NCBI RefSeq assembly: GCF_003334355.1
Contig: NZ_QOWP01000009.1
Strand: one strand, 5' to 3'
Source: Escherichia coli
Lineage (GTDB): Bacteria; Pseudomonadota; Gammaproteobacteria; Enterobacterales; Enterobacteriaceae
Length of the DNA stretch: 64,000 nucleotides
A program made the position numbers and the translations under genes. Below, one piece after another: positions 11,808 to 13,299 of this stretch (position 1 is the stretch's first letter; every line of letters starts with the position of its first letter). The notes below the pieces were generated by a model. It did no database searches and was not told the DNA's origin. It saw only the letters and a list, made by a program, of their open reading frames with translations.

Positions 11808-12491
11808 CTACAAGGTTCGACAAAGGCACCAGACCTGGACAGTCGCCGCACCATTGCGTAAAAGCAACTGCGCAATCTCTGCGACGGTACTTCCGGTGGT
11901 AACGACATCATCCACAATCACCATATGGCGACCTTGCACGGGCAATTCAAGACGAAAGGCATTTTTCAGGTTGCGCTTGCGTAGCCGGGCACTGAGAAAA
12001 TGCTGGGTCGCAGTGGCCCGTGTTCGTGTGATGGCTTCGCTATCCCATTGGCAGTGCAACCAGCGTGATAACGGCTGACACAGCAAATCGCTCTGATTAA
12101 ATCCCCGACGCCAGTGACGCCGCTGCCATAACGGAACGCTGATGATACGATCCGGCAATTGCAACCCGGTGGTGCGACGAGCGTGTAAGACTTCCAATAG
12201 TAACAGACGTGACAGGGCGCTGGCGATTTCGCTGCGCCGGGAAAACTTAAGCTGGTGGATTAGCGGGCTTAACGGCGGCGCATAGTCGGCAACCGTGACC
12301 AGTCTTTGCCAGGGCGGTGGTTTTTGCAGGCAGCGACCGCAGGTAAGATGTGAGTGTGTGGCGGGTAATCCACATTGTGGGCATAACGTTTTATCTGTAC
12401 GGGCGGCGCGTGAGCAGACCGAACAAATCCCCCAATGACCTAACGCCAGCGGCATTCGGCATAGCCAGCATAATCCTGGTACTGTTAGCAT
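11808..12491 (-). CDS. gntX: ComF-family protein GntX (zinc-finger plus phosphoribosyltransferase-like domain)
   Basis: ORF track opens at 12554, but the expected 227-aa protein begins at the internal ATG (MLTVPGLCWLC...). Cys-rich N-terminus; PRTase motif 'VIVDDVVTTGST' near the C-terminus. Confidence 0.85.
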   Translation of the reverse strand: MLTVPGLCWLCRMPLALGHWGICSVCSRAARTDKTLCPQCGLPATHSHLTCGRCLQKPPPWQRLVTVADYAPPLSPLIHQLKFSRRSEIASALSRLLLLEVLHARRTTGLQLPDRIISVPLWQRRHWRRGFNQSDLLCQPLSRWLHCQWDSEAITRTRATATQHFLSARLRKRNLKNAFRLELPVQGRHMVIVDDVVTTGSTVAEIAQLLLRNGAATVQVWCLCRTL

Positions 12492-12528
12492 ATGTTCATC
12501 CTTGTAAGTCAAAAGAGAACAATAGCGG

Positions 12529-13299
12529 ATGAATAACATCTGGTGGCAGACCAAAGGTCAGGGGAATGTTCATCTTGTGCTGCTGCACGGATGGGGACTG
12601 AATGCCGAAGTGTGGCGTTGCATTGACGAGGAACTGAGCTCGCATTTTACGCTGCACCTTGTTGACCTGCCCGGCTTCGGGCGTAGCCGGGGATTTGGTG
12701 CGATGTCACTTGCTGATATGGCCGAAGCCGTGCTGCGACAGGCACCTGATAAAGCCATTTGGTTAGGCTGGAGTCTGGGCGGGCTGGTGGCAAGCCAGAT
12801 TGCGTTAACCCATCCCGAGCGTGTTCAGGCGCTGGTCACCGTGGCGTCGTCACCTTGTTTTAGTGCTCGTGACGAGTGGCCGGGGATAAAACCGGACGTG
12901 CTGGCGGGATTTCAGCAGCAACTCAGTGATGATTTTCAGCGTACGGTGGAACGGTTCCTTGCGTTACAAACCATGGGTACTGAAACGGCGCGTCAGGATG
13001 CGCGGGCGTTGAAGAAAACCGTTCTGGCGTTACCGATGCCGGAGGTTGACGTGCTTAATGGCGGGCTGGAAATCCTGAAAACGGTCGATCTCCGCCAGCC
13101 GCTGCAAAACGTGTCCATGCCGTTTTTGCGATTGTATGGCTATCTCGATGGTCTGGTGCCGCGAAAAGTGGTGCCGATGCTGGATAAACTCTGGCCACAC
13201 AGCGAGTCATACATCTTCGCCAAAGCGGCTCATGCGCCGTTTATTTCGCATCCGGTCGAGTTTCGTCACGTGCTGGTGGCGTTGAAGCAGAGGGTGTAG
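12529..13299 (+). CDS. bioH: Pimeloyl-ACP methyl ester esterase (alpha/beta hydrolase)
   Basis: 256 aa; 'HGWG' and nucleophile elbow 'GWSLGG'. Confidence 0.95.

Follow-up and report, generated by a model that had tools for sequence, protein, structure and literature searches.

The divergent genes bioH and gntX of Escherichia coli, whose start codons are only 37 base pairs (bp) apart, probably form an ancient, length-constrained junction in which the transcription signals are carried by the neighbouring coding sequences. We studied this junction, together with nfuA, the gene downstream of gntX, in a window of 64,000 nucleotides (nt) from E. coli (contig NZ_QOWP01000009.1), and we are reasonably confident of this reading, including the promoter models for the three genes that it comprises. 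The 37-bp spacer would hold just the two translation-initiation regions, and the transcription signals would be written into the adjacent coding sequences and maintained there by selection on synonymous sites.

A sigma-70 promoter takes up about 35 bp 5' of the point where transcription begins; a leader with a ribosome-binding site must be added to this, and RNA polymerase has a footprint of roughly -55 to +20. Two promoters with their leaders exceed 37 bp, and promoters must therefore be embedded in the neighbouring genes. The first-pass annotation of this DNA had proposed that at least one of the bioH and gntX promoters lies inside the neighbouring open reading frame (ORF), and both the geometry and the conservation of synonymous sites support this. 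The refutation that it suggested, start sites mapping within the spacer, is flawed: the -10 and -35 hexamers would still be in the neighbouring ORF, and the bioH start that we predict (~12498) is itself in the spacer.

A compact junction of conserved length

The ORF list and the RefSeq annotation of an identical genome place bioH, encoding the pimeloyl-ACP methyl ester esterase, on the plus strand (12529..13299; ATG at 12529-12531). On the minus strand they place gntX (yhgH), encoding a ComF-family DNA-utilization protein of 227 aa (11808..12491; ATG at 12491..12489, stop codon TAG at 11810..11808), and nfuA (yhgI/gntY; 11174..11749, ATG at 11749). The spacer between bioH and gntX, ATGTTCATCCTTGTAAGTCAAAAGAGAACAATAGCGG, occupies 12492..12528, and that between gntX and nfuA occupies 11750..11807. 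The two distances that had been read off the DNA, 37 bp between the start codons (sequence, ORF list and RefSeq) and 58 bp from the gntX stop to the nfuA start (sequence), are thus exact, and RefSeq gives the same gene ends in E. coli genomes; several complete ones are 100% identical over 2.3 kb, the window being part of the chromosome. Window positions (w) convert to MG1655 coordinates (g) as g = 3557373 - w, and the counterparts are bioH at 3544074-3544844 (-), yhgH at 3544882-3545565 (+) and nfuA at 3545624-3546199 (+). Within the MG1655 region equal to the window there are six divergent pairs, of which this one is the shortest (the others measure 119, 227, 319, 378 and 611 bp).

To study how constant this layout is, we took 80 loci of GntX orthologs, one genome per species, and located the three genes in each; 77 species, all Enterobacteriaceae and ranging from Escherichia to Cedecea and Buttiauxella, were usable. 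In every one of them bioH is divergent from gntX, with a spacer of 34-41 bp in 76 (the mode, 37 bp, is found in 35 species). The sole long spacer, which measures 61 bp and lies upstream of position 2501 in Citrobacter sp. MGH106 (locus L016), is accounted for by an insertion of ~24 bp between both ribosome-binding regions. The distance from gntX to nfuA is just as stable, at 58-61 bp in 77/77 species. Judging from these alignments, such constancy of spacing is more than chance. The arrangement loosens in 12 loci of distant relatives, with a GntX identity of 44-48%: four of them have bioH in divergent orientation at 28-82 bp, eight lack it upstream, and nfuA lies downstream of gntX in nine.

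In the aligned spacers of the 77 species, the conserved parts are those expected of translation initiation. The gntX Shine-Dalgarno sequence is AAGGA at 12504..12500 in E. coli, and either AAGGA or GGAGG is found 6-9 nt 5' of the ATG across species. On the other side, the minus-strand sequence TAYYGTTCTCTTTT is conserved beside the bioH ATG; its complement is a weak Shine-Dalgarno-like GAGA for bioH, and it also carries a candidate basal -10 for gntX, TATTGT (12524..12519). Between the two ribosome-binding regions, sequence and length vary.

There would be no 37-bp spacer if the start of gntX were mis-annotated, and the genes would then overlap. Indeed, the frame stays open upstream to a TTG at 12554, which would give 248 aa and an overlap of 26 nt with bioH, as the earlier reading of the ORF track had noted; some database entries hold a GntX form of 243 aa (P0001), and the frame upstream of gntX is open for at least 13 codons in 81% of species. 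We nevertheless rejected this start and find it hardly credible. Spacer lengths of 34-41 bp differ by non-multiples of three, so the extension falls in different frames among species and is not a conserved one. Also, all orthologs align from M-L-T, behind the Shine-Dalgarno sequence (AAGGA/GGAGG) 6-9 nt upstream, and RefSeq annotates the 227-aa form. The extension thus exists in the ORF track of this DNA, but its run into bioH is irrelevant to the junction.

A predicted bioH promoter in the first codons of gntX

Promoters embedded in coding sequence should leave a mark on synonymous sites. We measured conservation at third codon positions in codon alignments of 78-79 orthologs. Gene-wide, in bioH and gntX, the majority third-position base is common to 60-63% of species, and a conservation of at least 97% is reached at just ~5% of degenerate sites. 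The recovery of a known sigma-32 promoter inside gntX, described below, validates the method. This was combined with a conservation-weighted scan for sigma-70 promoters, which covered the two strands of the region as aligned across 75 species.

On the bioH strand, the scan yields a single fully conserved site, in codons 1-10 of gntX (12462..12491, plus strand). This predicted promoter consists of a -35-like hexamer TAGCCA (12462-12467), an 18-bp spacer and an extended -10, TGTTAGCAT (12483-12491), which agrees with the motif TGnTAnnnT and is conserved in orthologs. TAGCCA-N18-TAGCAT, preceded by TG, is the top site of this strand in E. coli, with a score of 7.7; it scores at least 4 in 75/75 species, with a median of 7.7 against 3.5 for the next-best site. 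TGTTAGCAT is the reverse complement of the gntX codons 1-3, ATG-CTA-ACA, and the -35-like hexamer falls in codons 9-10. The rare leucine codon CTA is conserved at 96-100% in codons 2 and 10 of gntX, and ACA in codon 3 at 100%, a retention that the predicted bioH promoter would explain. Transcription from this extended -10 would start at ~12498 (MG1655 3544875, minus strand) and give bioH a leader of ~31 nt contained within the spacer.

Published occupancy data, gathered by chromatin immunoprecipitation on microarrays (ChIP-chip), show regions for RNA polymerase and sigma-70 that are centred on the bioH/gntX spacer (PMC3923258 Table S2). One of them, RNAP_1636 (3542688-3543113 in U00096.2; PMC3923258 Table S2), has its centre at w ~12494, a position that at such low resolution is consistent with the predicted bioH promoter.

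The bioH -10 TAGCAT overlaps a minus-strand hexamer TATGCT with an offset of 1 bp (12486-12492). Symmetric bidirectional -10 elements, with divergent starts 18 bp apart, were reportedly described by Warman et al. in 2021, and the 1-bp-offset geometry of TAGCAT/TATGCT is alike. It differs in that the minus-strand start would fall at ~12480, inside gntX and 3' of its ATG, and could hence not serve gntX expression.

Candidate signals for gntX inside bioH

gntX is the ortholog of comF, whose product is the ComF homolog of the competence regulon controlled by Sxy and CRP-S sites, and Sinha is said to have found in 2009 that gntX is induced by Sxy. A CRP-S-like site, AAATGCGAGCTCAGTTCCTCGT, is found on the minus strand in codons 33-40 of bioH (12626..12647), centred 145.5 bp upstream of the gntX ATG, and no other CRP-like position in the region is conserved as well. 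Its TGCG is invariant in 75/75 species and includes the third position of bioH codon 38, where the amino acid is just 75% conserved; similarly, codons 30 and 34 show 97% conservation at the third position but less than 50% in the amino acid. Compared with the CRP-S core TGCGA-N6-TCGCA (22-bp site; C6, G17), the E. coli site has a perfect left half (TGCGA) and a right half, TTCCT, that agrees at two of five positions. Among the distant relatives, the orthologous position in locus L085 is a near-consensus CRP-S site, AAATGCGAGCTTAATCGCGTGA (TGCGA-N6-TCGCG, score 15.9), and relatives without bioH upstream have clear CRP-S sites ~86 bp from the gntX ATG. An exact search for the CRP-S core in the window was uninformative, with two matches against four expected, and its calibration on the hofM promoter failed.

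As early as 2006, comF was predicted to have a CRP-S promoter no more than 300 bp upstream, and thus inside bioH (PMC1635313). That study reports that the comF of Enterobacteriaceae possesses a CRP-S promoter of its own, that sites were sought from -300 to the ATG with overlap with upstream ORFs allowed, that the CRP-S sites of H. influenzae comA-E and a second site of hofM at -246 overlap upstream ORFs, and that induction needing CRP, cyclic AMP and Sxy was shown for ppdD, yrfD and sbmC (Cameron & Redfield 2006; PMC1635313). Compared with these competence promoters (PMC1635313), the gntX case is alike in being a comF ortholog with an invariant TGCGA half-site, an A-rich flank and an overlap with the upstream ORF. 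It differs in its degenerate right half-site in E. coli (TTCCT) and in being unusually far from the ATG (-145.5 versus ~-86). The window also holds the hofM operon, another member of the CRP-S regulon, which is divergent from mrcA by 119 bp (the region upstream of hofM and the 5' end of mrcA are at ~34376-34622); its second CRP-S site, at -246 and inside mrcA per Cameron & Redfield, was not identified by eye.

A further mark of constraint lies between this site and the start of gntX. The plus-strand block CATCTTGTGCTGCTGCACGGATGG, 24 nt in codons 15-22 of bioH (HLVLLHGW; 12571..12594) and 80-103 nt upstream of the gntX ATG, is identical in 75/75 species of Enterobacteriaceae and spans six consecutive degenerate third positions (permutation p<5e-5). 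Synonymous sites vary in the ordinary way in six other fully conserved peptide stretches of BioH, the nucleophile elbow WLGWSLGG among them, and the constraint on the block is therefore not due to protein conservation. The block is an imperfect inverted repeat; on the gntX strand it can fold into a hairpin (-8.4 kcal/mol, z = -2.6). Covariation among the distant loci with bioH upstream (4/12) goes both ways: L089 has a compensatory change from C-G to T-A in the inner stem, and L086 breaks the stem. No second copy of the block was found in the window, and it has no Rfam match.

We tried a number of identities for this block and rejected them. As a sigma-32 promoter it has CCCCAT, but only 8 nt from CTTCGG; for sigma-54 it has no GG-N10-GC; and a weak sigma-E match, GAACAT-N15-TCTGC, is explained by tryptophan codons. 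Boxes for LexA, FNR or NsrR were rejected by inspection, and a CRP site centred at -92.5 scores only ~1. An antisense upstream ORF starting at the ATG in the block has no Shine-Dalgarno sequence, and its frame is not conserved as the spacer length varies.

The block begins 42 bp downstream of the centre of the CRP-S-like site, where a class II-type start would fall, and one predicted distal start of gntX is accordingly at 12592-12595 (MG1655 ~3544778-3544781, plus strand); in Vibrio cholerae, the CRP-S-like site of comEA is centred at -44.5 (PMC4299799). By its sequence, the invariant CAAGAT in the block could also act as a -10, with transcription beginning ~74 nt before the gntX ATG, at ~12565 (MG1655 ~3544808, plus strand). 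It is conceivable, if rather doubtful, that block and CRP-S-like site together are the control element of an Sxy-induced gntX transcript and a conserved either/or switch between the synthesis of biotin precursor and DNA uptake. In that case, the block would be the 5'-terminal hairpin or an operator of the induced transcript, which would cover the bioH ribosome-binding site and start codon in antisense, its polymerase occluding the bioH promoter. Together with the predicted use of the gntX start codon in the bioH -10, the block is what remains curious about the junction.

The top conserved promoter-like site on the gntX strand is a candidate basal promoter (12519..12549, minus strand), with a -35 CTGCCA in bioH codons 6-7 (12549..12544), a 19-bp spacer, the -10 TATTGT already mentioned and a predicted start at ~12512 (MG1655 ~3544861, plus strand). 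Its median score is 5.6, and it scores at least 4 in 64% of species. We propose that gntX may be driven by signals inside bioH, namely the CRP-S-like site 145 bp upstream and the invariant block 80-103 bp upstream, to which the weak basal -10 in the spacer may add.

Whichever promoter serves, the gntX transcript would begin within or beyond the ribosome-binding region of bioH. From this it follows that the 5' ends of the two transcripts and the footprints of RNA polymerase on the two promoters would overlap, and with overlapping footprints a mutual exclusion is to be expected. We thus infer that the bioH and gntX promoters probably exclude each other.

A published and a predicted promoter for nfuA

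nfuA would be transcribed from two promoters, one for sigma-32, known from the literature and located wholly in gntX codons 181-190, and one for sigma-70, predicted here and controlled by IscR. The sigma-32 promoter (11923..11951, minus strand) has a -35 CTTGAA (11951..11946), a 15-nt spacer and a -10 CGCCATAT (11930..11923), with a predicted start at ~11916 (MG1655 ~3545457, plus strand). It agrees with the sigma-32 consensus (CTTGAA(A), ~13-15 nt, CCCCATnT), the -10 matching at 7/8 positions. Its hexamers are invariant at synonymous sites: gntX codons 181-182 (CTT GAA) and the CCAT of codons 188-189 are 100% conserved there in 78 orthologs. To place an older ChIP-chip coordinate we took the offset between assembly versions to be ~1978 bp, and an error of a few bp would be immaterial at the resolution of ChIP-chip. 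The sigma-32 coordinate of Wade 2006, 3543459 in U00096.2 (PMC2996942), then converts to w ~11936, inside CTTGAA-N15-CGCCATAT, and the binding region SigH_348 is listed at 3543476-3543712 (PMC3923258 Table S2). Nonaka et al. 2006 had described a promoter for RpoH within yhgH, and ChIP of RpoH with exonuclease digestion confirmed it (ChIP-exo; PMC9104697). Ours is the same element and nothing differs; what we add is its synonymous-site invariance across Enterobacteriaceae. Directly 3' of its -10, in the predicted initial transcribed region, gntX codons 193-197 (GTG GAT GAT GTC GTC; 11901-11915) also have third positions conserved at 87-99%, and a comparable conserved run follows the candidate distal promoter of gntX.

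The proximal sigma-70 promoter (11785..11813, minus strand) is predicted from the conserved end of gntX and a conserved string in the spacer. Its -35, TTGTAG (11813..11808), is made of the last leucine codon of gntX and the stop, and codons 226-227 (ACC TTG) are 100% conserved at synonymous sites. After 17 bp comes the -10 TATTAT (11790..11785), within the invariant spacer string GGGCGTATTATAACC, with a predicted start at ~11778 (MG1655 ~3545595, plus strand). The -10 and the start region are overlapped by an IscR type-1-like site, ATAACCAACTAAAATAGTCAACTAT (11762..11786, minus strand), nearly invariant in 77 species. It matches at 23/25 positions the type 1 consensus, which Giel is said to have given in 2006 as ATASYYGACTRWWWYAGTCRRSTAT. 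nfuA has elsewhere been handled as an IscR type I target (PMC8262890).

The earlier suggestion of an nfuA promoter within the 3' end of gntX is thus correct, and with the sigma-32 promoter it is already published. The predicted proximal promoter, which that suggestion did not include, has its -10, start and IscR-type site in the 58-bp spacer and only its -35 in gntX. In addition, no terminator-like site was found in the 58-bp spacer, and since there is none between the two genes, read-through from gntX into nfuA is likely. A simple promoter scan had as its sole match TAGTCA-N16-TATGAT, overlapping the nfuA start, which is at chance level.

Weighing the alternatives

The observations can be read in other ways. 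The overlap could be minimal, with both starts in the 37-bp spacer (bioH at ~12498, gntX at ~12512) and just the core hexamers intruding into the neighbouring genes; the block and the TGCGA inside bioH would then be unrelated to gntX transcription, being for example a structure or a binding site in the bioH mRNA. We regard this as possible but on balance unlikely. It is true that the promoter-like site with the best conservation on the gntX strand places its -10, TATTGT, in the spacer, that the ChIP-chip region for RNA polymerase is centred there, and that the block is able to fold in the bioH mRNA (-12.3 kcal/mol). However, this fold is not significant against shuffled sequences (z = -1.5), and the 19-bp distance between -35 and -10 makes the spacer promoter weak. 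The nucleotides of the block and TGCG are, moreover, retained despite changes of the amino acid (codons 30, 34 and 38), and a near-perfect CRP-S site stands at the orthologous position in L085. Still less probable is a neutral compaction of the genome without any regulatory coupling, in which the synonymous conservation would stem from local mutational or codon-usage effects. Compact divergent junctions are known elsewhere in bacterial genomes, but here the length stays at 34-41 bp in 76/77 species while the sequence between the ribosome-binding regions varies freely. The invariant synonymous run (p<5e-5), the inclusion of the non-preferred CTT, CTA and GGA among the conserved codons, and the recovery of the known sigma-32 promoter by the same method also speak against it. 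We find it very improbable that one or both mRNAs are leaderless, with a 5' end at the A of the ATG and a promoter beside each start codon. E. coli has TTCATC-N17-AACAAT on the bioH strand, which would give a start at ~12529-12530 (score 5.3), but this site is conserved in just 13% of species, the Shine-Dalgarno sequence of gntX is conserved while positions -12..-7 hold no -10 for it, and the -35 would still sit in the other gene.

We thus favour a junction whose transcription signals lie in the neighbouring coding sequences, and several points weigh against it. The 75-79 orthologs share ancestry and are not independent samples, and the promoter and CRP matrices are approximate, being derived from consensus frequencies. 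In E. coli the CRP-S-like site has a poor right half (2/5), its median score across Enterobacteriaceae is low, and no convincing -10 was seen at class II distance from it. The 19-bp spacer of the candidate basal gntX promoter is suboptimal. A peak for RpoS from genomic SELEX (systematic evolution of ligands by exponential enrichment), assigned to gntX, lies ~340 bp upstream, inside bioH (PMC5493296), and matches no element proposed here. Finally, ExcludonFinder gives 16 core divergent excludons, each seen in at least 50% of MG1655 transcriptomes, and the pair bioH-yhgH is missing from them (PMC12288877). If gntX stays silent in laboratory culture for want of Sxy, this absence is what one would expect, though it lends no positive support to an overlap.

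Relation to known systems

Much of this locus is already known: the gene coordinates, the sigma-32 promoter in yhgH and the control of nfuA by IscR. Its elements belong to known kinds, namely an intragenic sigma-32 promoter (published for this very gene), a promoter under IscR control, a putative CRP-S competence promoter that extends into the upstream ORF, as is documented for other such sites, and a compact divergent junction with overlapping promoters. The 37-bp observation is correct and the distance is conserved, and the organisation is of the ordinary, compact bacterial type and largely documented. The classical E. coli biotin operon, bioA/bioBFCD, has divergent overlapping promoters with a shared BirA operator. 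Our junction is alike in that a gene of the biotin pathway stands in a compact divergent arrangement and has promoter elements that overlap those of the partner; it differs in that bioH does not belong to the bio operon and is paired with a competence gene rather than a biotin gene. We know of no control of bioH by BirA, and no bioO-like operator was seen at the bioH/gntX junction. Divergent excludons (PMC12288877) offer a further likeness, the spacer being too short for separate promoters, so that the 5' regions must overlap. In these, promoter occlusion and antisense 5' ends are expected; at bioH-yhgH an overlap would follow from the geometry, provided that both genes are transcribed from local promoters.

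The junction can serve as a worked example of how synonymous-site conservation over ~75 species finds a known intragenic promoter and points to likely ones, such as the bioH -10 lying on the gntX start codon. It also has practical consequences. Recoding or deleting the 5' end of bioH or of gntX, or the 3' end of gntX, should disturb the neighbour, and gntX deletions of the Keio type could alter the expression of bioH and nfuA.

Neighbouring features and other lineages

Two of the distant lineages show other contexts for comF. In locus L097 (373-2199), comF is divergent from bioB/bioF with a spacer of 96 bp, a hint that comF may have become associated with biotin genes more than once. In L095 (131-2199), it stands directly after a secretin gene, nfuA still being next, and the order secretin-comF resembles the com operon of Pasteurellaceae.

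In the window, the gene after bioH is rpnA, which is convergent with it, the stop codons being 26 bp apart (13300-13325); rpnA-bioH is listed as a convergent overlapping pair for MG1655 by ExcludonFinder (PMC12288877). On the other side, beyond nfuA, gntT lies on the minus strand (9497-10813; ORF list and annotation). An Rfam scan of 11000-13500 gave nothing relevant. Just 3' of the nfuA stop, at 11120-11159, there is a weak, sub-threshold Rfam match to naRNA4, an RNA derived from repetitive extragenic palindromic (REP) sequences (27.5 bits against a gathering threshold of 59.5), which is probably a REP element.

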